A stretch of DNA of 50,804 nt, filler included, from Jimgerdemannia flammicorona (Eukaryota), in NCBI GenBank assembly GCA_003990765.1. It is 2 parts of 2 records of this genome, joined end to end, with 100 filler letters (N's around TTAATTAATTAA, not from the genome) between each part and the next. Parts side by side here need not be neighbours in the genome. Positions count along the whole stretch, not along the records: positions 1 to 25,355 come from RBNJ01000842.1; 1 more part is not named here. The stretch is one strand, 5' to 3'. Positions within the stretch are counted from its first letter, which is position 1, and every line of letters starts with the position of its first letter. The notes below the pieces were generated by a model. It was given only the letters and a program-made list of their open reading frames with translations. It had not been told where the DNA came from and did no database searches. Positions 1-37,060 of the stretch are shown here, piece after piece. The translations under genes were made by a program, and so were the position numbers.

Positions 1-917
1 GGATACAACTAATAAAAGCATCTGCGATGTTGTCTCCAGAATGAGGGCCAGCAAGTTTGACGAAGTCAAGGGTGAGAGATTTAAGCTGCCAATCGAGGTC
101 AATCCAATGACTGGTAATGCCCAGAAACGAAATTACATTGGGGGATGTCCATGTGTCGATCGTAAACGAAATTTTGCCTGCCGAATTCTGCTTATTGAAT
201 GTGAGGTTAAATTGGTGAGCTCTTTTGTATAATTCAGCTTGCAAAGGTCATAGTGCTGCCCTTATTTTACCTGAAGTGTCTGGCAGAGATTGTCGTGCTC
301 CTTCCTATAGGCCTCCAGGACATCTTTGCGAATAGTATCGGCACTTGGCAAATATAAATCATGCTTGAGGAGGCCAAAGATGCTATGCAATTGATCACTC
401 TTGATGGTTGTGAATGGCTGGTCTGTGCACACAATCCAGTGAACGAGCCGATTTCGAAATTCTGCTGAAGAGTATGGCTAAAATTTTTGATTAAATGGCA
501 TTGTTGGTACAGAAATGGTCAGGCAATCGGATAAACATACCCACCACAACTTGGATGTCGATTTTATTTATCTCCGTGTTCTTTTTGATTTTGTCAGAGT
601 GCTTGTCTTTTATGTGTCGATTCATGTTCGAAGTCGTACCCCCAAGCATTTTGAACTTCTGGCTGGTGCAGTTCATGGAGGTGGATGAAACAATATCATG
701 TGTGTGTCAAACAATACCATGTGTGTGTCAGACAAAGTGTCAATAGGTGCATCTTAATTTTTTACCTGCAATAATTACAAATAACATCATCTCCTATCTT
801 AGTACAATGTTGCCAGATTTTGGAGCGAGGATTGCGTGGAAGGTGTGGAACTATCAGGGATGTTTGACTTGAAGCATTATTGGTACTGTGGACTGTTGAA
901 GACTGATCTGTCAACAT
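1..917 (-). CDS. hAT transposase, N-terminal part; exons 917-766, 662-545, 477-271, 187-<1
   Basis: Manual splicing at GT-AG introns (765-663, 544-478, 270-188) gives a stop-free frame: BED finger RSKIWQHC..ICNYCSQKFKMLGGTTSNMNRHIKDKH, then LVHWIVCTDQPFTTI..PSADTIR, then catalytic ISFTIDTWTSPNVISFLGITSHWID..HSGDNIA. The start codon is tentative. Confidence 0.88.
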
Positions 918-1437: not shown

Positions 1438-4400
1438 GTCTTGTAGCAGCAGATGATTTCTCAGTATAGGAAATCAGCTATAGAGAGGGCATTGGCTTCT
1501 TATAATGCTCCTGCCTCTATCCATTTGGTGAAGAGGTCTACAATAACTATAATATAGTGGTTTCCTGATAGTGTTACTGGTAGTAGTCCAATGATATCCA
1601 TTGCAATGTGGTGGAAGGAGATAGGCTCAATTCTTGATAATCTGGGTACCTGGTCTTGCTGATCTTGTTTCTGTTTTTGGCACTTGTCACACCCTTTGAC
1701 AAATTGGTGCAGGTCTTCTTCCATCTTGGGCCACCACATGGTTCTTCTTACCTTGTCATATGTATTGGTTCCTCCTAAGTATCCTTGCTCGTGTACTTCC
1801 TTCATTACTTGATACTTCTTGTGTTCAGGTATTACTAGCTTTCCTCCTTTTCTGAATATAGTGTTGTCTAATTCAAACTGTTTCCATGTCCGGTTGATGA
1901 TGGTGATTGTCCAGGGTTCAAAGTGGCTGGGCATCTTCTGTTGCTCAAGGTAGCTGATTAATCCATAGTATAGCTCCTTATTCATGTTGAATAGTCTTGA
2001 TGGGGATATTTCGGGGTGTCCTTGAGAGTGCATCAGTATTGGTATTGGTCTTTCCTGGGTAGTGCTTGACAGTACAGTCATATTCTTACAGCCTATAGAT
2101 TCATCTGGCATATATTCCTTTGGGGTTCAGAGTGTGGAATAGCCAGGCAAGAGTGGAATGGTCTGTTTGAATGGTGAAGTGTTTTCCAGCTAGGTAGTAG
2201 TGGAACTTGTCTACTGCCCAAACTACTGCTAAGCATTCAAGCTTGCATGACTCGTAGTTCTGTTCCACTCTGCGGGTACCTCAGCTTGCATAGGAGATGA
2301 CATATTCATGTCTATCTTTCTTCTGAGCTAAGACTGCTCCAAGTCCTATAATACTCACATCTGTCTACAGGATGAATTCTAGGCTCCAGTCTGGTCTTCT
2401 GAAGATGGGTGCTTGGGTCAACCTGGTCTTGAGTTTATTGAAGGTTTCTTGGTGCTCCTTGGTCCATTCGAATTTGGTCTCCTTCTTCAGTAGCTCATAG
2501 ATAGGTACTGTAATGTTGGAGTATCCTTTGATGAATCTTCTGTAGTAGCTGGCCAGTCCAAGGAAGGCATGGACTTCTGTGGTTGTTCTGGGTCTTGGAT
2601 AGGCTGCAACAGCCTCGATCTTCATGGGGTCTGTGTGGATTCCGGTCTGGTTGATGAGGTGTCCTAGGTAGGCAATTTCCTGAGCTGTAAACTTGCATTT
2701 CTTGGGCTTAATGTAGAGGACATGCTCCTTGAGCCTCTTGAGGGCTAGCTGTATGTGATTGATATGTTCCCATGCAGTGTTGCTGAAGATGATCACATCA
2801 TCAACATAGACAAAGAGCCATTTTCCAATCTCGGTGCTGAAGACTCTGTTCATCATTCACTGGAAACTTGCTGGGGCATTGCACATTCCAAATGGCATTC
2901 GCAGATAGATATAGGTGGCATCAGGTGTAATGAAGGCTGATTTCTCACTGGCATCTTGAGTGAGACCAAACTGATGGAAGCCTGAGAACAGATTCAAGAT
3001 GGTGTAGTATTTGGCTTCACTTCCAAGAGTGGTAAGGATTTCTTGAATATTTGGCAAGGGCTGCTTATCCTTCTTAGTGATGGCATTGAGTTTCCTGTAG
3101 TCAATGTAGAGTCTTGGTGCAAACTCTCCAGACTTGCGTCCTTTCTTTGGGGCTAGGACAATGGGTGAGGCCCAGGGGCTGATAGCTTGCTTGATGATTC
3201 CAGCTTCTTCCATTTCCTTGAGTTCTGCTTGCAGCTATTCTCTGTAGGCAGGTGGTATAGGTCTGGCTTTCTGGTAGATGAGCTTGGTATCACCAGTGAC
3301 AACTTCGTAGTAGTACTTGGGTTCTTGATTGTGGATATCCCTAAAGTCTGTAGCAAGTACTCCTTCATTCTGGTGCAGGATCTTGAGAAGTTGTTCCTCC
3401 AGGGGAAAGTTTTCTCCAATGGTATATGTGTGCTTATTCTGGTCCTTGTCTTTCTTATGCTCAAGTTTGGTAATCTTGGTGGCAACATAGACTTCTCTTC
3501 CAGTAGATCCAAAGCCTTGTTCTCCTCTCTTGGTCTTGATAAGTTCAATGGCTTCTATGATCTTGGGCTTCTTGACTTCATGGATCAACATCTGGCCAAT
3601 CCTGTCATGCTTCTTGACTTCAAAGGGGGTGGTGTGGTTGTGATTTCTGACTATGAGGAAGATCTCACCAATGTAATCAGGGTCAATTACTCCTCCTTCA
3701 ACTGAGATTTTGCTTTTGGCCAGACTGCTCCTGGTCTTGATAATTCCAACATGGTTTTCTGGTAACTTGACTCCAATTCCAGTGCCAAGTAGGGTGGTGG
3801 TCTGTGGTTCAAGGGTAGCATCTTGAATGCTGGCAAGGTCTATTTCTATGGCTCCTTTAGTCTTGTATTCTGGGATCTTAGCTTCGGAGTGAAACTTCTT
3901 GACCTTGAGGGTGATGTCTGATTCTTGTTCCTCCTCATTGTCACTATCAGCTTGAAGCTCTGGAGGCTGGTCATCTTCTTTAGCTTTCCTTTTTGCTTCA
4001 GCAGCTTCTTGCTCATATTTCTGTTGACAGATTTTCCTGACTTCACTGATACAGGACCAGCAGTCATTTAGGTATTCAGAGCAGTACATTCTAGTACCAT
4101 GGGGGCATCTTCCTTGAGGGGTATAGCCATCAATGATCTTGTTGTACTACTGCTCATCTGTGAGCTTGGGTGTCTTGTTCTTGTTCTTGTTCACTAAGTG
4201 CATGAAGGCCTCTGTGTCCTCTTCATTTCCTTTCTCCATATCTAGTAGGACTCCTTTGTGGACATTGATAGAGACTCATACCTTTCTTCCTCTGTAGTTG
4301 ATTGGTATCTTCTGGGCATTGAGGTCAATGATGGCCTTGGTCTTGTGAAGCCATTGGTTGTCAATAAAGATGTCATAGTTGGTGGCACTTGTAACAATCA

Positions 4401-6003
4401 CATCTACTGGAATGGTAGCTCCTCCTATCTTGATGGGGACTTCTCAGATTTTGCCAAGGGGGGTAGCTCATATACTATCTGCTGTGATATAGACCATCTT
4501 GGTAGACTCTTCAATGTCCCAACCTAGGTGGTCAATTGCCTTCTTGCTCATGAGGCATCCTCCAGTACCAGTATCAATAATGGTATCAAAGATACAATCT
4601 TCAATCTGACATGGGGTATAGGCTGATGTCTTGCACTGGTCTTTGGATTCTTCACCTGAGTTCTTGGATTCTTCCTGTGCATTGTGAGCTTCTACAATCT
4701 TATACTCTTGATTCTTGGCAGTAGTTGCAAGTTCTACTCTCAATTACTGTCTGAAGGTAGGGACTTCAGCTAGCTGTCCAAAAGTGGTATTGACCTTCTG
4801 TTCCTTGAGGTCCTTGTAGATGTCATACTGGTGGATCTTGGTCTTGCACAGCTTCTGTTCCTTCTTGCTATCACTTTCTCCTGAGACTGGAGTAATGCCT
4901 TCAATAATTTAGTGGGCAGCTTCATCTAACTCCATGTCTTGATCAATCTCCTTAGATTGAGTCTTGCTTTGAATAGTGATAGCTGGGGTCTTCTTTGGTC
5001 TTCTAACTGGCTTGCTGTTACTCTTCTTGTCATAGGGCTTGGATCGGGTTCTGGTACCTTCAGTAGCAGGGTAGAATTCAAGCTTCTCATAGTATTCTTC
5101 ATCATCAGCATCACCGATCTCCTTTATGACTACTGCATTGGTTTGTTCTCTGGTTCTGCTAGTATTGCTTGGTTGGGCTTTGCATCTTGTTTCAGTCATG
5201 CAACTCTTTGCATAGTAGCCTTCTTCTCCACATCTGAAGCATGTGATATTGTATTCTTCTGTAGTAGCTGCAAATCTCTGTACTGGTCTCCTGTTAGTGC
5301 TTCAGACTTCTCTAACAACATCACCAAGGTGTGCAGTCATCTCGGCGAACTGCTTGGCAAGTTCCTCCACTGGGTCAGCTTTGGCTATCTTGGGGGTAGG
5401 TGAGGTTGGTTGTCTGTTTACAACTGTGGTGGGTATGATACTAGTTGGCTTTGATGACTCCATCTTGATGTCAGTTATTTTCTCTATTGAGTGTTTGGCA
5501 GGGTGTCTGGCAGTCCAATATCTCTATGCAAAGACCACTTTCTGATCAAGGGTCAGCATAGCTGGAGTAGATTGGATTGCTAGGGCAATTTTATGGTGAA
5601 CTTCTTTGAGGAAAGTTGAATCTGCTATTTGTTCCTTGAGGCAGTCATCATAGCCAGCCAAGATAATCTGGTGGCAAATTCAGGTATAGAATGAGTTGAG
5701 ATCTTTACTAAGTCTCTGGCAGATAGTATTGAGTTGATCCTTGAGAGCTTGCTTGATCTCTTTGGTATAATATGTTGTTCTGAGGAAGACCTTCATGTTG
5801 GCAAGTTTGGCTGCACCAGTATCAGCAATGGTGGCTGCATTAAACTTGTCTCTAGTAGGTCTTCTGAGGCTGACTGATAGAAGGGCCAATTGAGCATCCA
5901 CACCAAGGGCTTGTATGGTGGTGAATTGTTCAAAGTCTTCAATGAAGGTTAGGATTGACTCTTCAGTAGTATATTCATAGAATGTGGGGAGATGCATTTC
6001 CAT
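1438..6003 (-). pseudogene. E1 gag-pol polyprotein with premature stops
   Basis: Gag MHLPTF..FIEDFE; zinc knuckle CFRCGEEGYYAKSC (~5200-5245); protease IIDTGTGG (~4555-4580); RT ISPWASP/DYRKLN/MPFGMCNAPASFQ/YVDD; RNaseH LECLAVVWAV; IN HEQG..CDKC and IAMDIIG..VDLFTKW. Confidence 0.92.
3499..3909 (-). CDS. dUTPase domain in E1 pol, between protease and RT (open frame)
   Basis: Trimeric dUTPase motifs: GAIEIDL, KTRSSLA, GGVIDPDYIGEI, DRIGQM, RGEQGFGSTG. Confidence 0.93.
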
Positions 6004-6120
6004 CTTGTCTTGAATTCTTGCAGAGGTGACTCTTGTAGTCAGGGTAGTTATTGTGGGGGTTGTTCGTTTTTCAGCTTGAAAGTGAGGGATTCATGAATCA
6101 CTAGCCAATGGGCACCAAGT

Positions 6121-7824
6121 TGTCATGTAGTGGTCACTAAGTCCTTTAAATATGCCAGATTCTCTTCAAGGTGTATCTCTTAGACTAACTCAAGTTTATT
6201 ATATGTAAGCAAGTTCTTATTGGAGTGCCTTCTCAAGGTCTTATAGTCCTCAAACTTCTTATCTTTAACTGTCTTATTATCTCTTAGATTTCTTGCAAGG
6301 AAGTGTGTATAAGTGAAACTGGAACTGACTTTATTTCAGAGGAAATAAGAGGGGTATTTATACAAAATATAATTCAATGGTTGCTAAGATATAAAGCTAA
6401 ATATAAATTCCAATAACTACTAAGTTCCAGAGTTGATACTGATGGTTGTACAGGTTCAGAATACTGGTATTATCTAGTGTCACATAGTGCTGAAACAATT
6501 TTGCATCACCTCAGAATACTGGTGCTGATATTATTCAGTGTTATATGAGAATACTGGTGCTGGCATTATCCAGTATAATAAAGAACTTAGAGCAGAAAGT
6601 TCAGGACCATGGGGGCTTCATCCTCATCATCATCATTACTAAAGGAGATGATATCTATGAACTCGTCATGTAGATTGCACATTTCGCATATATTGCATGA
6701 GATGATATCATTGCCAATGATGTCATCATGCTCGGCTATGGCAGGGAAATTGGGAACAAGGAGATCTGGAGCTCTCCAGTCTATAAGGTTCTCTTCCACA
6801 AAATAGGGAACAAATGTGGGGTCTTGGGGAGGTCTAACCTAGATGCTTGGGCCTTAGAATACTGAGATCAATCCTTGCAGGAATTGGTCTGGGTTGTCCT
6901 GAAGGATAGGATACCAGAAGTCTTCTACTTCTTCACTGTTGAGGGTGATAGTGGACTGGGCTTCTGTAGCCACCCTGGCTTCTAGTGTATTGATATGGCA
7001 GGATGACAGGTCTCTGAAGTCTGAGACTCTAACATACTCCAAGTTGGGGATTGACTATAGTGCATGCCTGAAGATCTGATGGATCTTCTTAGCTGTCCTC
7101 ATTTTGCATATATCCATGGGAGTGGTATCTTGTAGCTCTTGGGTACTGGCCTGTGGGAACTCCTGACAGAGGAGGTTTCTTATTTTGTACTCCTGCTATA
7201 TTTGGAGACATTCAGTAGCAATGGTGATCCTTGTTTATATTTTGTGGCAGTAGAGAATAAAGTGATAAGGGTCTGCAGTACCCAGATTGACACTAGGAGT
7301 CCTTCTTGAGCAGATACCCATGGCTCTTCTGATGTTTTGGAACATTCTTTCCTCAACTGAGATACCTTGGTAATTTCTTGACCTTGAGGTTTGGCAGGTA
7401 GCAGGCATTTCATTTGTGGTAAGTCTTTGAGCTATTTTGGAATTGGTGGTTCTTGTTGGTTGCTGCTACTGTGGTTCCTTGATCCTTCTTTTATATTCTT
7501 CAAGATGCTTATACTGTGGTCACAATAACTCACAGTTGATCATCATTGCTCATCTCATATACTATATGATCTTCTTGTGCTCTGATCTAGTGACTTATAA
7601 GGAAAGGCTGTCTCCTGTGCTGATGTCATCATTCTGGAGTCACAATTACAATACTAAACTAGTACAGAGGCTAGTGTGACTACTATAATATTACTGGCTG
7701 AAGAGAGCTGAAATTAGTGCAAAATCATTATGATCTTACTAATATTCTTATATTTTCTAGCATATAACCTTACTGGTGACATGAATCCAATGATGTCAGC
7801 TTGGTGATGTCATCATTTGTGACA
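6121..7824 (-). repeat. E1 5' LTR, long (~1.7 kb)
   Basis: Inverted termini TGTCA/TGACA; TATAAATACCCC (6362-6351) followed by AATAAA (6335-6330); three AGAATACTGGT repeats at ~6459-6575; PBS 3 nt after the LTR end. The partner LTR is outside the window, so the 7824 boundary is unconfirmed. Confidence 0.65.
6587..7558 (-). pseudogene. Decayed ~320-aa accessory ORF upstream of the TATA box in the E1 LTR region; function unknown
   Basis: ORFs 6587-6799 and 6854-7042 share a frame, and the reading extends to ~7558 through a few stops and one frameshift: ...RTAKKIHQIFRHAL*SIPNLEYVRVSDFRDLSS..., ending in an acidic tail with CNICEMC. Confidence 0.6.
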
Positions 7825-8163
7825 TTGTAATGTATTTTCATTATAGGCAGTCCTATTAGAGACTTTGGAGAACTTGTCTAAGAACTAGAAGATCTTATTA
7901 CACAAGCTTAAAATTGTACAGTCAGATACCCTACAGTAGTCTCACTAAGCTCACTTATAGAACCTTTATCACCAGCTCTTACAGAACTAAAAGCAGCTCC
8001 TTCAAGAATACTTAGGCTCATTTCACTTTGCCCAAGGTCCAGAACTCCATTCTCAAGATACTCAAGCACCCCCATTTCCAGTAATAGTTCAGAAAGTGAA
8101 TCAGAGTCAGAATCTGAATCAGAATCCAGACCAAAACCAGAATCAGAAGAAAGTGATGACAAA

Positions 8164-9434
8164 ATGGCCACCTTATTGCCAATCTTTACAGGATAACCAG
8201 AGGAAGACTCTAGAGAATTCCTTGATAGAATTGAAGGAATTGCAGCTCTGAGAAATCTCTCAGATGAAAGAAAAATCACTATCTACAAGGCTCAGCTCAG
8301 AGAACCAGCCAGAGGAATTTTCTACTAAACAACAAATAACCCCTACTCAGAACTGATAGTACAAATATAAGCAACAGCATCCTATGAGCTGAAGTATGTA
8401 GCCATAGTCCACTAGCTCATTGAAAAATATGTAGAAAATGAAACCCACTACAAGGTTCAAGAATCCATCATAGAGATGAAGGTAAATCTTAGAGAATTAC
8501 CCAGAGCCTTCTTTATAAAAATCCAGAAGAGAATGCATATAGCCAGATTCAATGCCACCAACTAAGATATCATAGGTCTAATGATCTTTATGAATGAGAT
8601 TCCCCTGAACATTGCCCAGCATGTCTGCACTCTAGACATCAGAAGGTCTGAAGAATAAGTAGATATAGTCTAAGAATTCTTTGATGTCAGACAAGAAACT
8701 CTCTGGAGTGATTATGATAAGAAGGATGATAAGGAAGACATCTTAGTCAAAGTCCTATAGGGACTCCTTCAAGGATAAGAGAGATCTGAAGAAAGAAGGC
8801 CAGCCAAGAAAGGAAAGAAGGACAGAAGCAAAATCTAAGACCTCAGTTCCAAGTTGGACTGATTGGTTAAATAGATTGAAAAACTCACCATATATGAAAA
8901 TCAGAGTTATTAAGATAATAAAGGATATCTACCTCAGAGGAGCCAAGATTATCCACTTAGAGATATATAACAGGAGCTATCAGCAGGAAGAAAGAAGATA
9001 CTCTGTCTGAGATAGAGCTCAAGTTCAATGCTTTCACTGTGGATAATTCAGATACTATCTACTAAATGTGACAACAAAAGAAGTGACCAAAGGGATTTAG
9101 AACTACTAAATTGAAGGAATGAAACCTCAGTACAAGAAGGCTGAAGCTTATCCTGTTGAAAACTTTGAAGAAGAAAGCAATAGTAAAGACTATAGTAACC
9201 TAGACTTGTATCCAGCCAAAGTTACTATCCAGAAAACAGTTTACCTAGTAGAAAAAAGGAAGAGACCTATAGGAAGACCATCCAGAAATATCAGCAGAAG
9301 AATTATCCAAGAAGAAGACAAAGAACATGAAGAGAAGCAAGTGGAAACACCTCTCTGAACTCCCTTACCTTTTGTTCTTAAGATAAATGAGCTGCTACCA
9401 GAGAATGAAGAAATAGAACAAGAAGAACAGGAAC
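8164..9434 (+). pseudogene. E2 gag
   Basis: MATLLPIFTG*PEEDSREFLDRIEGIAALRN...; decayed zinc knuckle QCFHCG at ~9026-9070. Confidence 0.8.
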
Positions 9435-9887
9435 TATAACAATTTCACAGTCATATTTAGTCTTAGTACATTTTTGCATCTTTTAGTTAGTCTTTTCTTA
9501 TCATTTCTTAAATATTCTACTATATTCCACCACTTTTACTTGCTTAAAAACCTTCTCTTAGTGCCCAAATACTACTAGAATATTTTTGTCTTTCCTTGAC
9601 ATCAAGTATCTTGTCTTAGCTAATTATGGAACCTTTTGGAACATTGTAGAATAGCATTAGTCAGCTTTACCAAGAACCTATTTCTTGGCATTTCTCTTTA
9701 TTTTCAAGATCCTTCTGGATCTTTCTTTCAGATTATATATAAATATTCTTGTTCTCTGCCTGAATAAAGCTCAGAATATTTTTCTCTCAGAAATTCTTCA
9801 ACCTTTAAGTATCTCTTTGAGCTATTTTAGGCCAACCAGAACTTCCAGATTTAGCTGCTTTCTCTTAAAAAAACTAGAACTGTTACA
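9435..9887 (+). repeat. E3 5' LTR
   Basis: TATAAC (from TGTAAC)...TGTTACA; contains TATAAATA and AATAAA; aligns end to end with 15062-15526. Confidence 0.95.
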
Positions 9888-15061: not shown

Positions 15062-15526
15062 TATAACAATTTCACAGTCATATTTAGTCTTAGTATATTT
15101 TTGCATCTTTTAGTTAATCTCTTCTTATTATTTCTTAAACATTCTACTATGTTCTGCCACCTTCTACTTGCTTAGAAATCTTCTCTCAGTGCCCAGACAC
15201 CACTAGAACATTCTTATCTTTTCTTGGTACTAAGTATCTTATCTTAGCTAGTTATAGAACCTTTCAGAATATTATAGAATAGTATTAGTCAGCTTTGCTA
15301 AGAATCTATTTCTTGGTATTTCTCTTTCTTTCCAAGATCCTTCTGGATCTTTCTTTCAGATCATGTATAAATATCCTTGTTCTTTACCTGAATAAAGCTC
15401 AAAATATTTTTCTCTCAAAAATTCTTCAAGAATACTTAAATCTTTAAGTATCTCTTTGAGCTACTTTAGGCCAATCAGAACTTTCAGATTTAGCTGCTTT
15501 CTCTTAAAGAAACTAAAACTATTACA
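15062..15526 (+). repeat. E3 3' LTR
   Basis: Direct repeat of 9435-9887 with many transitions and a ~12-bp indel. Confidence 0.95.
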
Positions 15527-21207: not shown

Positions 21208-22512
21208 TGTGATAAATCAAAATGTACCACCCAAATTATAACTTAAATAGATGATATAAACACATAATATAGTAATCAGACACAGTAACCATTGCTGCAG
21301 AAAACTATATAAATAGCTAGAACTACCAGATAAGATATATCTGTACTGGACCTGCACACCTATGCTGAACCAGTATACTCACTATAGATAGCAATCTATA
21401 ATTAGCAATATAGTAATCAGATATGTAGCAACTACAATGTATAAAATACTCTAGAGATAAAAGTGAATAAACCTCAGTTCAAAATTCAAAGCAAAAGACA
21501 AGTCTGCCTACTATACTTCAAGAGGAACTCTATAGTCACTGCTAGGAGATTGTGAGCTTACTTTCTACTCCAGTCCACTTTCTGATACAAAGAAGAGTTT
21601 GTTACATTTTTTGATTTGCTTGCCAGATAAGTCTGAAGAAATCACCAAGTTTAAGGAAGAACTTCACTACTTTTTGAGTAATCTACTGCTTAAGGAATAA
21701 GCCACTACATTTTAGTCTACTTGCCAGATAAGCCTGAAGAGAAACCCACATTCCCAGAGAGTCTTAAGGAATCTTGCCATATATCAGTCTCTTGATGTAA
21801 CTTTACAGTAATATGTTTATGCAAATAAAGCCAGTCTTTGATATAACTTGCTAAGAATCTGTATTGTCTGATATTTCCAGAAGAACTCTACCAATTTAGA
21901 AAGAATCTGCAACATCTGAGTTATCTGAGTTATCTGAATTATCTGTATCATCTGAGTCATTTACCCATTTCTAGTAAGCTGTGTCAAATATTTACCACTC
22001 CTAGAAGAACTGCTAAGTTATTATTCCCAGTGAGCTGATTTAGAAGAATCTGTACCAATATAATTCCTAGTAAGCTAATTCAAGAAAATCTGTACCCAAA
22101 TTAAGTTATCCACCAAATCTACATAAGGAAACCATCAAATTGCCAGATTATTCTACATAAGGAATCCATTCACACTATATAAGATTGTTATGCAGAAATT
22201 ACATACTTTTGAAAACAAGACTATCACCTAGAAATTACATACTTTTGGAGATCATCATACTATACAGAGATTGCCTGTTACTCAAGAAGAAAAACTACTA
22301 AATTGCCATATATACAAATCACCACTATACCCAGAGAACCATCTCAATTAGGAAATTGATATATAAATCACTCATAGATATCCAGCTTAAACTATTATAC
22401 TACTAAATACCAAGAATATTTTATTGCTTTTAACAAAGTAACTGGGGGCTTAAGCCAAACTATACTAACCCCCAACCTTATAATTTGCCTCTATTGAGCT
22501 GGGCACATTATA
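21208..22512 (+). repeat. E2 3' LTR (~1.3 kb; right boundary approximate)
   Basis: Starts TGTGATA right after the purine tract; TATAAATAG ~21308; AATAAA ~21466; internal repeats (CTTGCCAGATAAG x2, ATCTGAGTT-type 9-mers at ~21914-21958). hAT-like sequence begins after CATTATA (22512). Confidence 0.55.
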
Positions 22513-24994
22513 CTAGTAAGTAAATATTTTGATATCAGAGACAGTATAAATCTATTTTAAAATTTACTTATTAGCTACTACTATATAATTTATTTTATAA
22601 TTGAAAAGATATTTAAATTGAAGAGATCAAAGATAAATTTTATATAATTTATAATAAAAACTATGCTCCTCTATCTGGATTAATTAATTGAATAAGTTCT
22701 AAAGATTATGAAGAAATAGAAGATGATATCAATACTATACTATATAAATATATATTTAACAAAAGACAAAAACTAATAATAAATCCTAAGCAAGAGATAA
22801 ATATTTATTTAAAAAGTAAAACTATTAAATTTTGAGCAGAAGATGATATATTATTTTAGTAGTAAGTAAGTTAGAAATTTATATTTGAATTAGGTCAATT
22901 CAAAATATTATTTAAATTTCTCTAATTAATTTAATTGATTGAAAATATTAGAACTATAGCAGAGATTTTTCAAATCTAGCAAAAATGATATATGACTACT
23001 TAGCTATCTCAGCAATAAGTATTTCAATTGAGAGAGTTTTTTTTAAGTAATAAATATCTTATAGTGGCTAAAAGAGATATTTTAAACTCTGAAAAAAATT
23101 ATTATATTTAAAGGTATAGTAATTAGTCTAATATTTTAATAATAATAGCTAATTTCAAAATCTTGAAATATAGTTAAATTTTGAAATATCAAATAAATAT
23201 AGTACTCAGATATTATATTATATAAGTATGACTCAGAACTTGTAGATATACTATATATATATATCTAAATATAATTTCTGATATTTATATCTGATTATTA
23301 TATTCAAATATAATTTCTATTATTTTCAGTCTTAATAAGATGAGCAAGATATTATTGTATATACTAGAAATGAATAATAAATAGTATAAATGATATAATA
23401 TATTAATATATTTAAAGTTTAAGAATATATATTATACATACTTGGTCACTATATCTAAAGTACTTATATTTGTAAGCTCATAAGTCTGCAAGTAATAAAT
23501 ATAAGCTAAGAGTTTCAAATATTGCAACAAGTACAATAATAAGTATAAGTCAAGAGCTTTGAATATTTTAATAAGTATAATAATAAGTATAAGCTAAGAG
23601 TTTTGAATATTATAATAAGTACAAATAACAAGTATAAGCTAAGAGCTTTAAATATTATAATAAGTATAAGTAATAAGTATAAGCTTATAAGCTATAAGCT
23701 TCAGATATTATAATAAGTATAGATAAAATAAGCTAACTTTAATAATAAAAAATTAATAAAAAACTATATACTAATAGAATTATATAATATATTATAGATA
23801 ATTAAACTAACTATCAGCCCTAAGTTCTGAGTTCTTATGAGAAAGTGCTAAGTTCTGATTACCTATTATAGTAAAGTCCAGATATCACTTTTAGATTCTT
23901 GTATTTTCTTAAAGTACCATACTTGTATCTCTAGTTGATTACTTAGAATTATTAATAAGTTAGATCTGAAGGTTTTGTGATAAGAATACTACTTTATTCT
24001 TATATTTGAGAAAAGTAGAGCTGAGGTTACAATATACTCAGTATAGAGAATATTTATATATATTTGAGACTATAAAAAAAAAAAGCAAAATGATCTCACC
24101 TTATAATAAACTTAAATTCTATATCAATTATCTTTCTGAAGTCTTTGAAGATATATAAATAATATTATCAATAAGGTTATTATTTGGTTAAATAATAAAG
24201 AACTTAGAACTAATAATTAATATAAGAAAAAAAAAAAGAAGATTGAAGATATAATCAAGTAATTCATCTCAAAACTATCTCTGAAGCTATATTTAAAGTT
24301 ATCTCTGAAGTCTCCACCCCTGAGGTCTTCATCTCTGAAGTTACTCCTGATATTCCTAAAGCTATTTTTGAAGTCCTAGCTGCTATTCAAGCCACTATTG
24401 CTATCTAAGCTGCTCAAGCCACTACTGTTATCCAAGCTGTTCAAGCTGCTATCACTACTCAAGCTATTACTACTATCTAAGCTATTATCACTACTTAAGC
24501 CACAGCTGCTACTCAAGCTATTACTTAAGCTGCTACTTTAAAAACTAAAGATCAATCTCATATAAGTTGTAACAATTGCAGAAGATATAGAAAACTATAT
24601 TATATCCTTTTTAAAATCTGTCAACAACTCAATTTATTGATTTTTAATTTTCTACTAAGAAAGAGGCTATATAATAATACTTATTAGACAGCTACTGCTA
24701 TGGCTAGATATGGCTGAGACTTATATATATATGAGAATTTCAAAAATATAAATTAGCTATGTAAATTTTAGTTATATTTATATATAAATTTCAAATAATA
24801 TATCTTTCAAATAAAGAACTAATTATATTATAATATAAGCTACTGAGAATCTTGAATTAATATTTAATTTTATTTGACTAATTTAAATTGGACTCTCAAT
24901 TTGATTTAAATTAAATTAAATTAGATCTTAATTTGAATATAAAAATTCTCAATTTGATTTAATTTGAATTGATTCAATTTATTTAAAAGTACTA
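22513..24994 (+). mobile_element. Old, extremely AT-rich hAT relic, 3' part
   Basis: hAT dimerisation motif DFSNLAKMIYDYLAISAISISIERVF (~22963-23043; consensus FPxLxxMARDYLAIPATSVxxERxFS), decayed GATTTAAATT/AATTTGAATT subterminal units (24860-24980) and terminus ..AAAGTACTA (24994) resembling ..AGAGCACTA (1437). Confidence 0.75.
23490..23725. repeat. Tandem repeat, ~43-bp unit x ~5, within the hAT relic
   Basis: Recurrent AATAAGTATAAGCTAAGAGCTTTGAATATT-like unit. Confidence 0.8.
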
Positions 24995-25094
24995 GTAACT
25001 GCTAACTAAAATGCTATACTATATTAGGAATTAGATTCAGATACTATAATCAAATATCTATCTTCTGATTGTTATTTCTAATTTAGATCAACTA

Positions 25095-25355
25095 TTATAT
25101 TAGTTATAGAACCTTTTGAAATATTATAGTCATCTTTATTAAGAACTACTTTCTTGACTTTTCTATATATTTCTAAGATTCTTCTAGATCTTTCTTTCAG
25201 ATTTTATACAAATATTCTCTTTTTTTACTCAAATAAAGCTCAGAATATTTCTTTCAAAATTCCTTTAAGACTATTTAAACTTATGAGTATATACCTCTTT
25301 AAGTTACTTTAGGCTTACCAAAAACTTCTAGATTTAATTACTTTTTTTTTAAAAA
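25095..25355 (+). repeat. Diverged LTR related to the E3 LTRs, cut by the gap
   Basis: Shares collinear GATCTTTCTTTCAGA, AATAAAGCTCAGAATATTT, TTTAGGC and AGATTTA blocks with 9435-9887. Confidence 0.8.
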
Positions 25356-25455
25356 NNNNNNNNNNNNNNNNNNNNNNNNNNNNNNNNNNNNNNNNNNNNT
25401 TAATTAATTAANNNNNNNNNNNNNNNNNNNNNNNNNNNNNNNNNNNNNNNNNNNN
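25356..25455. other. Assembly gap: 44 N + TTAATTAATTAA + 44 N
   Basis: Six-frame-stop linker centred in a 100-base spacer; artificial. Adjacency across it is unproven. Confidence 0.97.
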
Positions 25456-25526
25456 TTTTTTTATAGTCACTCGGACTCATCCTTTATTACCCCATCTATC
25501 CTATAAAAGTACAGTGATCCCACCCC

Positions 25527-28500
25527 CTATCCAATCCCCCTAGGGGGGCCCCTCCCCTCTACCCCTTCTCGATGAAACACTACTCTATCGAATACAATCC
25601 CCACCCTCCCACCACTCTGTTCACATATCCTTGCCACCAAACCTTACTGCTGCCCCTCTGAAGGGCCCCAACCTACCCACCATCCAGTCATCAGATCCCC
25701 CAACAGCTCCTCCCACCTTAAAACCTTCTTCTGCAGTCTCATCTACCACCCCTCCTCAAACATAGATAGCCAATATCCCGCCAATCCCACCCAAACTGCT
25801 AACACCCATCTGATAGTGAGCCAACTATCCCCCACCTCCCCCCACCAGCTGAGATCTCAAGTCCTCCCAGCAATCCCCTTCACCTACTGGCCCATGCTCC
25901 ATACCTAGTCTATTCCCTATTTCAACCCAAAAGTCTCCCAAAACCTCACACTCTCTCAGCCAATGTTCTGGCATCTGCACCAAACCCCCAGCTTGCCCTA
26001 CATTGTAACACTCCTCACAATCGAAACAGCCACTATCCACCAGATGCCCAGTGTGGAAATTCAGCATGACATTCCTCTGCAGTATTCGCCACCACACCAC
26101 CCAGAACTTGGGGGGAAGCCACCACTGCACCTCAGCACTCCAAGACCAGATACCTGCCCAGTCTCACTCCTCGCCGATCCTGACTGCCTGCCAACTGCTT
26201 GGCCAAAGGTCTTGGCCAAGACCCTGTTGATACTCCACTCTGTCCCCAATATCAAAAGCAGCAAGTGGAGTACCCCCCAGTAGCAGTCTATCCCATCACC
26301 ACATACAAGGACCCCACAACACCTCTCCCTCATTGTCTTGCCAGCACAGATCAATTCTGTGCACTCCATTGACCACTCCCCACCAAAAGCCCTTAAATCA
26401 CAGCTGCTGAATTCCATTGAGCCCTATCAAAGAGAGTAGATCTCCTGAGGACCCTCAGGGGGAGGTTCTCATCTCCCATACCTTCTGCATCAGAAGTACC
26501 CAACCCTCTCTCTGTAGTTCAGCTGCTCTCTTCAACCACCAGGCTTGCAAGCAGTGCAACCTCTTAGGGAAATCCATAAGGCCAAGCCCTCCCCTGTCCA
26601 CTGGTGTCGCAAGAGTATCCCAACTAATCTGGGACCTCCTCTCTACCCAAATCCAATCCCTAGCCACCTTTGTCAGCCTCTTCACCACCCAAGCTGGGAA
26701 GTCTAGGTGGTATACCACATACCACAGCTTGGGGAACCAGTATGTATTCAGAATCGATATCTGCCCTACTAGAGAGATATGGTAGCCTCCCCAACCTTGA
26801 AGGGCCTCCCCCCAAATAGACACCCTGCTCTCCCACCATACTTGTGGCAAGACAGAACCATACACAGAGAGGAAGATGCCCAGATACCATACCACCTCAC
26901 CAGTAGGGACAATTGTTCCAATGATGTCCCCACCCATCAGCCCATTCTCTAGCACCATAGTCTCATACTTATGCCAGTTGAGCTTTACCCCAGAGTGATC
27001 CTCATACCATTCCACCATCTCCTTAAGTGCCTCGACATCTGCCACAGACCCAAGACCAACCACTATATCATCTGCAAAGGCTCCCATCTTCCACACTATG
27101 CCATAGATAGAGAGCTCCACTACCTTCTGATGAATCCTATCCATTAACAGTTCCAATGAGAGAGCATAAAGAATAGGGGACAAGGGGTCCCTCTGAGGAA
27201 CCCCTCTTCTCAAGGTAAACACCAGACCATAGTGACTATTACACATTAGTGCCACCTGACTGCCCTTGAGCAGATTTACTATAGAAGCCTGAAACCCTGA
27301 AGGAACACCAATACAATCCAGCACCTTGCCCAGCCAAACCCGCTGGACCCAGTCATAGGCCTTCTCCTGGTCCAAAAAGACCAACCTTCCATCCAGGCCA
27401 CAAGTCTGGGCCCCTTCAATGATACCATGTACCCAAGCAGTCCCATCTCTTATAAGCCTGCCTCCAACAAAGCCCCACTACTCCTCCCCCAGCACCTGTT
27501 GGGTAACCTTTTGCAGCCTTGCAACAACCACCTTAGTCACCATCTTCCTGTCCATGTAAGCATAATCGGTCACCAGTTCTTCCAATCTTCTCTCCTCCTC
27601 TTGTCTTTGTACAATAATGCCACCAGCCCAAGGTCCTGCTCTCCAACCCACTCACCACTCTGAAGAACATGATCACAGAGAGCAGTCATCTCCTCCAAAA
27701 TACCAGAGACCTTGACCATCTTCTTCTAGAAGTCCCACAGTAGTCCATCCTCCTCTGGTGCTGTTCTAGTTTTAGTTGCCTCAAAGACACTCTGGACCTC
27801 CTCACCTCACACTGGCAAGGCCAAGTCATCCAGTCCAGCCACTTGCGGTGGCCTCCATTCCCTTAATACATCTTCAATAGCTGTCTCATCAGCACCCCCT
27901 TCATCCTCACTCCACAAACCCTGCCATCTCTCTTTCAAAATCCCTAAGATTTGTTGTGTATCATATACCATGTCCCCATCGGCATCTAGGACTCCATCCC
28001 ACTGATGTCTCACCCTCCTAGCATTGAGCAGATAGGATAAATATCTAGTGGGCCGCTCACTCTCCTCAAGCCCCTGCCACTGTAGCCTAGTAGCCATACC
28101 TCGCATATGCACCTCCTCCTCTTCTCTCAGCACCTGTTGCAGTTCCAATATCTCCAACTTAATCCATGCTAACCTCCAATCCTCCACCCCATCAGAAGTA
28201 AGTAAACCTGCCCAATCTATTTGCAATCTCCTCAGCCTGCTGGAAGCATACCTCGTACACTTCCTCCTCCTTCTCCCAGCTTCTCTCCCAGCCTCTTTCA
28301 ATCTCATCTAATGGATACCCACTGACAAATCCTCACACCTCCAGTAAGAAACTTTCACCTAAATGTCCTCTACCCATAAATCCCACAACCCCTTCTCAGC
28401 CAGCAGGGAGGAGTTGAGGCACCAATGTCCGAGTCCATCTCCACTCCCCCCAAACTGCCCCTGCCCCAACAGACCCCAGTAGTCTGACCATGGGCACTAT

Positions 28501-29159
28501 TCCACCTCCAACATCTTCCAGACATCAGCCCTCCAGCATTCTGCCATCAGAATCCAGTCAATCCTTGTACCTAAGCCATTCACCCAATACATGTAGACCC
28601 TGGAGTCACCCCATTGTATTCTACCCATATCCCCTAAGAAGCTCAGTCTCTCCACCTCCTCTCATACATCCAGGCCTCCACTTCTCCCTCCTGTACTCCT
28701 CCCACCATCAGTGTGGTCCAGATGCTGATCCTGAACCATATTAAAGTCCCCCCCAAGCACATTGACCCCTTCTGCTAAGAGAACACCCTCCTCCAGTAGC
28801 TCCTCAATCCATACAATCTACTCACCCCTAACTGCAGGGCAATAGTAAGAGCCAACCCTCACCGACTCCCACCCTGGCCACTGCCAATCTCCCCAGACCA
28901 AGTGGTCACCCTAGCTCCTGATTCCCTCCAAGTCACCTCTACCCTTCCTCACCAGAATTGCCACTTTTTCAAACCAAGCAGTAGCCCTGCCCCATTCCTT
29001 AGTCCACTTCACCTGATCATCCTCATCCTCACACTGAACATCCTGTAGTAAAAAGAGATCAGCCTCCAATCCCTTGAGCCAAGTAAAAATATTCTTATGC
29101 TGTCCAGAACCCTTCAACCCATTCACATTCAAAGAGAAAATGTTAGTTATACTGTTCAT
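25527..29159 (-). pseudogene. LINE A ORF2: APE endonuclease, RT, C-terminal CCHC
   Basis: IFSLNVNGL..LFLLQD, LGGDF, RIDW; RT LDQEKAYDWV, RRGVPQRDPLSPILY, AFADD, YLGI; CFDC..EHWLREC; ends ..PPRGIG*. Confidence 0.92.
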
Positions 29160-29190
29160 AAGGAATAATGTTAAAAAGTGATCCCATTCT

Positions 29191-31150
29191 CTACAAGTCC
29201 ACATTCAGCTCCTCCTGCACCAAGTCCAATTCATGTTCAGTAGCAAGTTCCCTTTCCCCAGCTTTTCATGCCTCCAACCCTCTCAGAAGTTCTACCATTG
29301 CCTCATCTTCCCTCTCCTCAAATTCCTCTCGATACTCCAGACAGGCCTCTCTCCAGAGCTGCAAACCATGATGCTCAGCCCAACAGTAGGTTACCTGCTC
29401 ACCTGTAACCACCACCAGCTCTGCTTTCCTCACCTCATCAACCTCATAACCCTCCTCCTTTAAGAGGATTGTAAGAATCTCCTCCCTCAGTGCCTCTACC
29501 ACTCCATCACTATGCAGAATCTACTCCCAATGCTCCTCAGGCATAACCCACAGATCCACTTCTCCCAATGCATCAGCTGCAAGGTTATCCATCACCTTAC
29601 TCATCCACAGCAAGTTTTCTATCTCCTTCCCTCCTAGAGTCCCTGGCCAGCCCATATCCAACATCATGGTGTCAGCACCCACACTGGCAGCCTCATCCTA
29701 CTCCTCCTCAGGGATATTCACCAGCTCATCCTCGTCAGCCACCACCACCTGGCCCCCTTTTGCCACATCAGGGACCCCAAAATGCACTTGCTGGGCCCCC
29801 TATATCAGCACATCCTCTATTATCCTTCTTTTTGCAGCCAGGCCCCTCCTGATCAGAGGGGGGGGGGGTGGAGTCCAATTCCAGCTCCCAGACCTCGAAG
29901 GTACCATTGGTAAATGGGTCCTTGCTCAGTACCTTCTCATCTCCTTTCTTGCCTACCTCCACCTCCCCTACCCCTTTACTAGCCCAGACACTGGCTTTGA
30001 TGCCCCCAGACACCTCAGCCCCAACTGCCTTCTTCTTCACCTCTACTGTCATACTCACCAGTAGCTCCCTCTGTCTCCTGCACCCCTGTGCCTGCTCCCA
30101 CTGCCCCTTGTCCATGCGGATATGCTTCTCCTCCACAACCTCCAGATGCATCGACTCCTCATACATCTTCCAGGCCCTTGCCCTCCTCTCCACAGCTCCA
30201 CTCATCTCCTCCAGTATCTCCAACAAGTTCTCCTCCTCCTTCTTACTCCTCTTCACCCTTGACATCTTACAGATGAATGCCCCCTACATTAGCACAGAAG
30301 GCCAGTCACTTGCCCTCCCCATAGCCTCCTTGTCCACCAGCCTAATTCTGATATCAATGTTGCTCATCCTGATCATTGTTCCCTCCCACACCTGAAAGCC
30401 AATGTCCACCACTTCACCATACTCAATCATCACCTCCTCCACCCTCTTCCTAGTCTCCTCCTTAGTCACTATGAGCACCCCCTTCACCAGAAGCTGCACC
30501 ACCCTGGGGTCCCATTGTAAGCACCACACCATAGAGACTACCACCTCCCCAACCACGACTCCAGCCTTCAGTACCTCATCCAATGGACCTGCCTCCTCAA
30601 AGCCCACCTCGACCCCCTCCAGACCCTTCAAGAACTTCACTGAGACCGCCCCAGCCATCTGCTTTGAAACAAGCCCCAGAACTATCCTCACCATCACCAC
30701 CAAACCCCAGAAGCACAAGATTACTGCAAACTCCGAGATTGACTTCTTGAGCAACAGAGCCACTACCAGCCCCATTACACCATCTACCAGGTCCCCCTTC
30801 CACATCGGGAACCCCTGCACCACCTGGCCATCAGCCATCACATCTCTTTTTTTTTCCTGAATCCCCATCACACTCCTATCAGCAGTCACACCTCCAGCCA
30901 CAGCCCCTCCTCCCCCTACATCTGTACTCCCAGCCAGAGCACCTCCCCTTCTCCCAAGACTCACCTTGCCCTTCCCCTTAGCAGCACCAGCCCTAAAGCC
31001 AGCCAGCCACCCACTCTCCTTAACCTTGTCTGCGAAGCTTAGGATACCTGATCTTTCTCCATTACTACTAGACACCAGTCCTTCTCCAGAGCCTTCTCCA
31101 CTCTTGGGCCCGCCAAAGGCCCCCATCCCCAGGCCATAACTCCTCCCCAC
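29191..31150 (-). pseudogene. LINE A ORF1
   Basis: ORF pieces 30284-31150, 29768-30265 and 29266-29502 lie upstream of ORF2 and are homologous to copies B and C. A central VQLLVKGV..EYGEVVDIGF segment looks RRM-like. Confidence 0.8.
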
Positions 31151-31313
31151 CTACTACCAGTTGAAGGCCCTAGGTCTACCTGACCTAGTACATGCACCAG
31201 TATATTCATTGCTTTCCATGTTGCTAGTCACCTCTCACCAAAAACATTGTCAAAAGTATTACCTGAGTCTTGTGTCACCTGAATGTTACTGGTAAAAGGT
31301 ACCACAGGCAAGT

Positions 31314-33243
31314 CTCCTGCCAGAGCTGCAATCCATGTCACTTGGCCCAACAGTATTTAGCCCTCTCACTAGCGACCCCTGCTAGCTCAGCCTCTCACTT
31401 CTCATCCACTTCATACTCTTCCTCCTCCAGATACACTGCAAGGATCTCTGCCTTCAATACTAACTCTACACTGTCCCCCTGCAGGATCTGTGCCTAATGC
31501 TCATCACTTATCACTCTCAAGTCCACCTCCCCCAGCTCTTCCACTGCCAGATTATTCATCATTCTATATATCCAAAGTAGGTTTCCTACCTCCTTCCCTT
31601 CTAGAGTTACCAGTCGCCCACTGTCCAATATTGTGATATCAGCCCCAGCACTTGCAGCCTCATCCCACCCCTCCAGAACATCCACCAGTTTCTCCTCACC
31701 AACTGTCTCCACCTATCCCCCCTTTGCCATCTCTGGAACTCCAAATTACACTTGCTGGACCCCCTTCATAGGTGCATTCTCCTCCACCCTGCACCAGGAA
31801 GCTGGACCCCTCCTGATGAGTAGAATAGGGATAGGTGATCCCTTCCAGTCTTCTTTCCAGACCTCAACCATACCATCAGCATATGGATCACTGCTGACTG
31901 TCTTCCTGCCCTCTCCTGATCCTTTTACTGCACCCCTATTATCTTCACCAACCCAGACACTCACTTTGGCACCTCCCATTTCCACCATTCTACCAGCCTC
32001 CTTCTGTGGTCAACTTTCCAACTTGGCCAATAGCTCCTTCTGGCACTTATGTCTCTGGGCTTTTTTCCATTACACCTTGTCCACTTGAATCTGCTTCCCA
32101 TCTACCACCTCTAAGTATGTTGACTCCTCAAAAGCCTTCCAAGCCTTCACTTACTGCTCCACTACTCCACTCAGTTCTTCTAGTGCCTTCAGCAAGTCCT
32201 CTTCCTCCTCCTCACTCTCCTTCACCCTCATCACCTTGTATAAGATCACCCCCCAGACTATCTCTGATGGCCAGTCCCTTGCCTTCCAGTAGCTTCTTTC
32301 CCTGCCAGCCAAATCCTCACATCCACATCTCCCATCCTGAGTGAGGTCCTCTCCCAGACTCTGAACTCGATATCCACCACCTCTCCATACTCCTCTATGA
32401 CCTTCTCAACTCTCCTTCTTATCTCCACCACCATCACTGTGGACACTCCTTTTATCAGCAGTTGGACCACTCTGGGGTCCCATTTCAGACAGTATGCCAT
32501 TAGGACACACATCTCCCCAACTATCAATCCAGCCTTCAGCGCTTCCTCCAGGGGCTCGGCCTCCTCAAAATCCACCTCCACTCCCTTCAATCCCTTCAGG
32601 AACTTTACTGATACTGCTCTAGCCACCTGCTTGGTGATAAGCCCTAGCACCATTTTTGCCATCACTGCCAGGCCCCAGAAGCACAACATCACCATGAATG
32701 CCAAGATTGATTTCTTAAGTAACAGAGCCACTGTTAGGCCCATCACACCATCTGCCAAATCTCCTTGTCTTCTAAGCCTCAGTCACTCAGCCATACTATC
32801 AGCAGTCATATCTGGATTTTTTTCCAGATTGGCAGTCTTGTCACCATTAGCTGTCACATTCTCCCCAGCTGCTACTCCTCTAGCTCCACTGTCCTCACCA
32901 CCAAGAGCTACATGGCTGGCTTCTCCATCTTCTTACCTTTCCTCAGCCAGCCCTCCAGCCCAGTTGCCTGCTGCCTCCCCTTCACCATCTCTACAAAGCT
33001 TACCCTCCCAGACCCCTGTCCTCCCCCACTGCCTCCTCCCCCACCTCATCCTTCTGCCAGCAACCCCCTCATACCTTCCCCCAGGCCAGGACCTCTCCCC
33101 ACATACTGCTAGTCGAATGTGCTAGGGCTGCCCTGCCCTGTATGCACCCCAGATTACTTGCTGTTTGCCATTGCCTTAGTACCTTTCTCTAATAAATGAC
33201 TTGAAAGTATGTTATAGAGTATGTATAATGTGAGTGGTAGCTA
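31314..33243 (-). mobile_element. LINE copy B: 5' UTR plus most of ORF1, cut by copy A
   Basis: ORF 32258-32758 (ADGVMGLTVALLLKKSI..WDPRVVQLLIKGV) matches A ORF1. Homology stops at ~31314, where the 5' end of A begins. Confidence 0.88.
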
Positions 33244-36200: not shown

Positions 36201-37060
36201 TTCCTCAACTCTCCTCCTTGTCTCTCTAGTAGCTACTGTGGGTACCTCTTTTACCAGCAATTGCACTACCCTGGAGTCTCACCTCAAGTAGCATATCATC
36301 AGAACACACATCTCTCTAACTATCAATTCTATCTTCAGTGTCTCCTTCAATGGTCCAGCCTCCTCAAAGCTAACCTCCACTCCTTTCAGTTCCTTCAGAA
36401 ACTTCATAGATACCACTCTAGCCACCTGCTTAGCAATTAGCCCCAGGACTATTTTTGCTATTACTACTAAGTCTCAGAAGTATAAAGTAACTATAAACTC
36501 TAAGATCAACTTCTTGAGTAATAGTGCTACCATCAGTCCTATTACACTATCTGCTAAATTGCTAGGTCTCATACCTTTTCCACTGCTCAGTCTACCACCA
36601 TCAGTCCTATCTAGATTTTTTTTCTGATCACCTGTCATACTCTCATCAGTAGTTACTTCTTCAGCCTCTACACCATCAGCCTCACTACTCTAGCCCTCCA
36701 GAGAGATTCTCTCTCAAGACAGCTACTCTGCAGTCTTCACCATCTCCTTGCCTCTTTTAAGCCAGCCCTCCAGCCTAGCTCCCTGCTGACCCCCCTTTAT
36801 CTTATTTACAAAACTCATCCTTTCTATCTTCTGACCTCTAGTACTGCTCCCTCTCCTATTATATTCTCCTGCTAGCAGGTCCCTCATGCCAGGACTCCTC
36901 CCCACATACTGCCAGTTGAATGCACCCAGGCCACTCTGCCTAGTATATACCTTGGAATGCTTATTAGTTATTATGATACTAGTAGTTTTTCTCTAGAAAC
37001 TATGTCAAAAGTATTGTCAAAAGGTTGTATAATCTGAATATTACCAGAGAACAGTATGAT
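33244..37060 (-). mobile_element. LINE copy C: 5' UTR, ORF1, EN and start of RT, cut by copy B; most decayed copy
   Basis: ORF1 homology (35706-36062), EN start IFSLNVNGL (~34890-34920), RT start LLYKNKSRREDWRNWRLIILLNIDRKLITKVVVARL (33250-33370). Confidence 0.88.

Follow-up and report, generated by a model that had tools for sequence, protein, structure and literature searches.

Textbooks treat protein genes that lie wholly within a long terminal repeat (LTR) as a peculiarity of a few vertebrate retroviruses, and the LTRs of retrotransposons are usually taken as non-coding and masked before gene finding. The sag gene of mouse mammary tumor virus (MMTV) encodes a type II membrane glycoprotein that acts on T cells, and betaretroviruses also carry a dUTPase. 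Foamy viruses possess Tas/Bel1 and Bet, accessory genes at the 3′ end that reach into U3 and are served by an internal promoter, and Tas feeds back on the LTR. Here we analyzed a 50,804-nucleotide stretch of the genome of the fungus Jimgerdemannia flammicorona (two parts of assembly GCA_003990765.1 joined end to end, hereafter the window), which contains E1, a Ty3/gypsy element on the minus strand that carries a dUTPase. Within the LTR of E1, upstream of the LTR promoter, we find a real gene that was once under protein-level constraint. The copy in the window is dead, and the whole is probably best explained as the remnant of a genuine accessory gene of the U3 region that, in working copies, would form a transcription unit internal to the LTR.

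Among described systems, MMTV sag is closest by layout: in both cases a whole protein gene occupies U3 upstream of the LTR promoter signals and would hence be present in both LTRs. In contrast to MMTV, the setting is a Ty3/gypsy retrotransposon in a fungal host, and the open reading frame (ORF) is directly preceded by a TATA motif proposed as its own. The window protein also differs from Sag in that it lacks a membrane segment and matched nothing in sequence or fold, and the gene is not a member of that group. For mechanism, foamy-virus Tas is the closest working model by analogy; the shared traits would be a gene of regulatory type at the U3 end, a promoter distinct from the LTR promoter and an acidic C-terminal part of the kind seen in activators. 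Unlike Tas, with which Pfam comparison showed no homology, the window gene lies wholly inside the LTR and not mostly upstream of it. The accessible parts of two accounts, one a review, on plants, of additional ORFs (aORFs) of LTR retrotransposons (PMC7264820) and one of rotifer ORF3s (PMC5408684), describe similarly lineage-restricted extra genes of obscure function; as far as those parts go, such genes are internal (before gag or after pol), unlike the window gene, which is upstream of the LTR TATA and AATAAA and of the LTR end at 6121. The phrases "in the LTR", "within the LTR" and "inside the LTR" do not occur in the accessible text of the review PMC7264820. For crapaud of Podospora, the part of PMC10787394 at hand reports LTR variation, with gag and pol as the only ORFs, and PMC4299795 and PMC8278194, as far as their accessible text goes, proved irrelevant to LTR-borne genes. 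Searches of full-text literature found no report of a gene inside a fungal retrotransposon LTR; most subscription journals fall outside that coverage, so this is not proof of absence.

An initial annotation of the window had described a decayed coding frame of ~320 aa between the upstream end of the LTR and the TATA and poly(A) signals at 6362-6330. With that frame (7558-6587, stops read as X) as the query against 5.8 billion proteins, we recovered four intact proteins at E <= 0.01 among 315 candidates, the best with E 1.9e-117 and 78% identity over 78% coverage. The intact homologues measure 215-342 aa and derive from public metagenome protein sets. Among the proteins that cluster with them are complete forms 271 and 323 aa long with MPAxxxQTxRSR at the N-terminus, and therefore the window gene begins at the ATG at 7408. 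Using tblastn, the intact homologue P0003 (residues 1-271) matched 7408-6590 in one frame with 66% identity (E 1e-115), so the gene carries no frameshift; it runs on the minus strand in a single frame with five internal stops to a TAA at 6589-6587. Where the window copy has its five stop codons, the homologues encode E, W, W, Q and R/Q, and single C>T or G>A changes explain four of these five. Thus the frame is indeed a conserved gene in decay, as the initial annotation had proposed, with a length of 273 codons (7408-6587) instead of ~320. The rest of the frame as first described (7409-7558) is non-coding leader and promoter sequence that is in frame by chance and holds three more stops.

Constraint at the codon level is visible despite the decay of the window copy. 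The comparison was made with L001, a 1,345-bp metagenome contig that belongs to a P0007-like subfamily and shares 51-57% protein identity with the window gene. Over 208 core codons, the Nei-Gojobori method (NG86) gave proportions of nonsynonymous and synonymous differences (pN and pS) of 0.231 and 0.723, respectively, and the differences at codon positions 1, 2 and 3 numbered 67, 40 and 102.

The protein family is tiny. A profile of 11 intact members detected 5 proteins (clusters) at E <= 0.001 among 1.84 billion representatives, searching by profile words yielded 11 clusters at 90% identity, and the family alignment separates into at least four subfamilies. Every member traces to a source of metagenome type at JGI or ENA, bears an uninformative name and sits on a contig of 0.5-4.8 kb. 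The viral_contigs and genome_contigs sets held no relatives, and no longer or fused forms of 600-2000 aa were present among 8,000 scored candidates, which is weak evidence. One further candidate, L002 (NFYX01008856.1), was rejected as spurious, as its 32% match hangs on the search pattern itself and contains stops. Differences between the window copy and its relatives are transitions at 252 of 279 places (DNA run X1, below). Among the nominally intact homologues P0005-P0013 and P0023, mutual differences are largely replacements of R by H, C, W or Q, a protein-level footprint of C>T and G>A, so many of the public homologue copies may likewise be decaying.

To place the gene relative to the LTR, Logan contigs of four public runs (X1, X2 and X3, which are DNA, and X8, a guessed RNA run) were aligned to 5600-8400 at 80% likeness. 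This evidence consists of single contigs and summed depths from other organisms; the share of words in the best-matching run was only 0.19, and the loose ends cited below are part of a set in which 258 more exist. Related contigs cover 5600-7667 at high depth in all three DNA runs, and over 7668-7761 the depth drops to 3.8, 0 and 0 in X1, X2 and X3, respectively. Summed depth over the LTR unit is ~2-4 times that of gag in each of these runs; for X1, most LTR bins range from 570 to 2,014 versus 351-484 over gag (5600-5975). One X3 contig departs at 7650, and its loose letters start with TCTTCCTCCT on the plus strand, a polypurine run on the strand of E1 immediately ahead of TGTAAT. One X8 contig departs at 6120 into letters unlike a primer-binding site (PBS), and one X2 contig spans U5 into the leader (6058-6247). 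Found before the PBS and gag, after a polypurine run and before unrelated DNA, the unit therefore behaves as an LTR.

The letters of the window itself are in keeping with this assignment. Reading along the minus strand, the LTR end at 6121 is followed by a PBS-like TGG, the leader, gag, protease (PR), dUTPase, reverse transcriptase (RT) and integrase (IN). A TG...CA terminal inverted repeat is present, with TGTAAT (7650) or TGTCAC (7824) facing CATGACA (to 6121), and the core letters of the main TATA, TATAAATA at 6362-6355 (-), and the AATAAA at 6335-6330 fall between the gene and the LTR end, where as motifs they would suit a U3/R border. No tRNA gene to pair with the PBS-like TGGTGCCCATTGG occurs within the window.

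The upstream terminus had initially been put at the TGTCA at 7824, with TTGTA as the candidate target-site duplication. Instead, the depth of related contigs collapses beyond ~7667 in the three DNA runs and the X3 contig switches at 7650. Two parts of the region are free of contigs, namely 6634-6727, which is the variable acidic tail of the gene, and 7668-7855, and because the latter lacks related contigs we prefer 7650 (TGTAA), which is likely the LTR start in this copy as in its relatives. A hypervariable 5′ part of U3 over 7668-7855 may alternatively account for the missing cover. The intervening 7651-7824 shares with the start at 7650 merely a ~25-nt look-alike (AATGATGACATCA...), whose score was equaled in 2 of 300 shuffles. 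Whichever terminus holds, the gene is within the LTR, between its start and the main TATA at 6362, and its placement in U3 by the initial annotation agrees with contig breakpoints and depth. Being in U3, the gene would be duplicated whenever the LTR is and would persist in solo LTRs. As a separate observation, ATGATGACATCA is a motif found close to each of the two candidate LTR starts (7630 and 7815, -) and once more inside the gene (6725, -), where it encodes DDII. The letters TGACATCA differ by one transition from the CRE-type site TGACGTCA and may represent a decayed upstream element of the gene's promoter.

The arrangement of signals around the gene recurs in L001. That contig carries the identical 11-mer GAATATAAAAG 58-64 nt ahead of its ATG, and ~200 nt past its ORF it has TGTATAAATACCCCTC, identical at 16 of 16 nt amid diverged sequence, with AATAAA ~27 nt further on. 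Window and L001 therefore agree in the order of parts (upstream TATA, ORF, main TATA, AATAAA), and since this layout is found at 51-57% protein identity, it is not an insertion private to the window copy. As judged from these motifs, the layout suggests a transcription unit contained wholly within the LTR. In working copies, the gene's own TATA, ~60-85 nt before the ATG, would start its mRNA, an ORF of ~270-340 codons would follow, and the main LTR TATA and AATAAA would come next, with the LTR's own poly(A) signal ending an mRNA of ~1.1 kb. Each LTR, solo LTRs included, would then be an expressible copy of the gene. Given how closely the AATAAA follows the main TATA, the start of genomic RNA would fall on or beyond that poly(A) signal; the 5′ LTR would in this way escape premature polyadenylation, and R would be very short. 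The gene's own promoter, the LTR-internal mRNA and the function are the parts of this scheme that we infer. Run X8 has a depth of hundreds to thousands over the LTR and 0 over gag, which is no proof of transcription.

The encoded protein has a marked charge layout. Intact members have isoelectric points of 4.5-4.9, the first 40 residues of P0003 carry a net charge of +8, and the C-terminal third is strongly acidic. Homologues share a C-terminal ...DEDEAPxxLNFLL and an acidic tail, which bears out the tail noted at the outset; the CNICEMC seen with it, considered as a zinc or Cys motif, was discarded as peculiar to the window copy, homologues having no Cys at that place. The initial annotation had also seen no gag-, pol- or env-like features, and accordingly none of the 18 members matched a Pfam family above noise (nothing at E <= 10 beyond noise) and no hydrophobic or membrane segment is present (maximum 19-residue Kyte-Doolittle mean <1.0). 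An AlphaFold2 model from 18 sequences shows a helical core over residues 13-166, with block means of 67-94 in predicted local distance difference test (pLDDT), a small hairpin and a tail of pLDDT <35; a first model had reached pLDDT 48. A sequence search of the PDB returned no match (best E 0.91), and Foldseek gave 0 matches at E <= 0.001 for both models. In the wide VIA search, none of 48,161 chains reached Z >= 5, the best having Z 4.9 with a root-mean-square deviation of 3.2 over 83 aligned residues, under the noise level for helical models. The best feature score in the ESM Atlas was 0.83, within the chance range, and the model made there had a pLDDT of 0.35. By these sequence and model comparisons the protein appears to have no known match in family or fold, and a missing match does not exclude a known transactivator family.

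Nuclear regulators are usually built in this way, with a basic head, a helical domain and a disordered, acidic tail that bears hydrophobic motifs. By analogy with foamy-virus Tas, our leading guess among several, held with low confidence, is that the protein is such a regulator and increases LTR-driven transcription; contributions to particle assembly or to the targeting of integration are also conceivable. It is also conceivable, if speculative, that the fungal Ty3/gypsy elements of this lineage are "complex" retroelements, each LTR of which bears a self-contained gene for a regulator of new fold that serves transactivation or blunts hypermutation or silencing. If so, thousands of LTRs and solo LTRs would be dispersed trans-acting copies of one accessory gene. 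More generally, a selected gene in the U3 of a fungal gypsy element would mean, if true, that accessory or regulatory genes evolved in LTR retrotransposons beyond animals, that solo LTRs can stay coding units, and that repeat masking conceals a protein family of no known fold.

Other explanations differ in what they make of the frame, the segment and the promoter. That U3 is a long non-coding region in which the frame stays open by accident can be given almost no credence. The open frame alone is weak evidence for a gene, being only mildly unusual (5 of 500 dinucleotide shuffles of 6122-7650 have a 273-codon stretch with <=5 stops), but the intact homologues, the one-frame tblastn match, the excess of third-position differences and a pN well below pS refute chance. 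It is very improbable that the segment is no LTR at all, and that E1 instead combines a short true LTR with an internal "ORF0" before gag, or that a foreign insertion or captured host gene is present in few copies. Some plant elements do have extra ORFs upstream of gag, and the window holds no paired LTR; however, the PBS-like TGG follows 6121 and not 7650, contigs of other organisms depart from the unit precisely at its borders, 7650 and 6120, the depth of the unit exceeds that of gag, L001 has the same layout, and the gene is followed by the main TATA and AATAAA, as a U3-R order predicts. The gene might alternatively sit in the LTR without a promoter of its own and be translated, like MMTV sag or nef of human immunodeficiency virus (HIV), from a spliced or subgenomic RNA carrying the U3 of the 3′ LTR, the upstream TATA being an enhancer element or a coincidence. 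U3 forms part of the 3′ end of every retroelement genomic RNA, and the upstream TATA was seen in one relative whose contig starts right there; yet an 11-nt identity of GAATATAAAAG at a like distance from the ATG is unlikely in unconstrained DNA when the proteins are 51-57% identical, and we regard this route as rather unlikely. For function, an anti-defense factor against host cytosine hypermutation of repeats or against RNA silencing, comparable with Vif, Rem and viral silencing suppressors, is about as likely as a Tas-like transactivator, and thus similarly doubtful. The dUTPase of E1 and the decay of copies mainly by transitions (the differences in X1 and four of the five stops) speak for it, but the case is purely circumstantial, neither homology nor fold comparison linked the protein to any such factor, and the window copy is itself hypermutated. 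The U3 gene also offers a concrete candidate for asking how retroelements of early-diverging fungi deal with cytosine mutation directed at repeats.

Several observations also weigh against our preferred account of an LTR-internal accessory gene. The layout is seen in two DNA copies only, the window and L001, and the L001 contig has its first letters right at the upstream TATA, which leaves nothing further upstream to compare; the promoter role of GAATATAAAAG is a putative one. LTR status hangs on single contigs of other organisms and on summed depths, and no second copy of 6100-7900 as a paired LTR, no polypurine tract and no target-site duplication of this copy are visible within the window. 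The upstream terminus is ambiguous, as 7824 offers the better terminal inverted repeat (TGTCA mirrors TGACA at 6125-6121) and 7650 fits the relatives. Between the window gene and L001, dN is 0.28 and dS is saturated near 2.5, which makes the dN/dS ratio merely a bound. The window copy has an extra, out-of-frame ATG at 7413, 5 nt upstream of the start codon, which we take to have been gained as a further sign of decay. The structure model is middling overall, with a mean pLDDT of 57, and the suggested transactivator role fits the charge layout, with homology, fold and expression searches having given nothing on function.

E1 itself is assigned from its internal domains, all on the minus strand. 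Pfam places a weak Asp_protease_2 match at 4468-4743, RT at 2365-3213 (RVT_1, 3.6e-12 and 5.8e-11) and the integrase zinc domain at 1500-2111 (Integrase_H2C2, 7.7e-17). A dUTPase is rare among retrotransposons; that of E1 sits between protease and RT in pol, at 3235-4089 (E 2.8e-26). The same position between PR and RT is reported for rotifer and basidiomycete elements in the part of PMC5408684 available. The integrase frame terminates at ~1500, with a 14-nt tandem array and unrelated frames beyond, and therefore the 3′ part of E1, including its 3′ LTR, is missing from the window. Coordinates of the LTR, the gene and the associated signals are collected in the table.

Table. Features of E1 and its LTR-borne gene, in positions of the window.
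Feature	Position	Strand	Basis
U3 gene, decayed, 273 codons + TAA	6587..7408	-	protein homologues, tblastn, alignment
Internal stops of the U3 gene	7237-7235, 7198-7196, 7057-7055, 6856-6854, 6841-6839	-	alignment with homologues
Upstream TATA motif GAATATAAAAG, ~85 nt before the ATG, proposed gene promoter	7488..7498	-	identical 11-mer in L001
5′ LTR of E1, likeliest span of 1,530 bp, from TGTAAT... to ...CATGACA	6121..7650	-	sequence, contig depth and breakpoints
Doubtful 174 bp: extension of the 5′ LTR in this copy, or flank or piece of another LTR	7651..7824	-	contig depth, sequence
Main LTR TATA motif TGTATAAATACCCCTC, end of U3	6349..6364	-	16-mer identical in L001
Poly(A) signal AATAAA, ~27 nt past the main TATA	6330..6335	-	sequence; spacing same in L001
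PBS-like TGGTGCCCATTGG, begins with TGG, 3 nt beyond the LTR end	6105..6117	-	sequence
gag ATG of E1	6003	-	sequence
E1 internal part (gag, protease, dUTPase, RT, RNase H start, integrase zinc domain)	1500..6003	-	Pfam; truncated at ~1500

Directly beyond the integrase break of E1, ~20 copies of a 14-nt unit (GGATTCGAATTGAG-like) occupy 1030-1334, and a CA/TG-rich stretch lies at ~880-1000. Frames at 2-706 (-) resemble a BED-finger/hAT transposase by eye, for which Pfam gives just zf-BED at E 0.031, under the cut-off; they may belong to an insertion that cut E1. On the other side of the element, 7908-8330 (+) holds a gag-like fragment of another element (...PEEDSREFLDRIEGIAALRNLSDERK..., stops present) with a Ser/Glu repeat ahead of it, and related contigs extend over 7856-8325 at lower depth. 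E1 seems to have inserted in or beside this fragment.

Elsewhere in the window, direct repeats of ~450 bp at 9435-9887 and 15062-15526 (+), 5.6 kb apart and 87-91% identical, are the LTRs of another element, and a third, partial copy lies at 25127-25255. Runs of N occur at 25356-25399 and 25412-25455. The region 25000-37000 shows extreme GC skew (-0.33 to -0.57) at a GC content of ~36-55% and contains repeats of 83-300 nt in three diverged copies (65-72%) that lie 1,968 and 3,799 bp apart. Adjoining this skewed block, 22000-25000 is very AT-rich (GC 20-25%).

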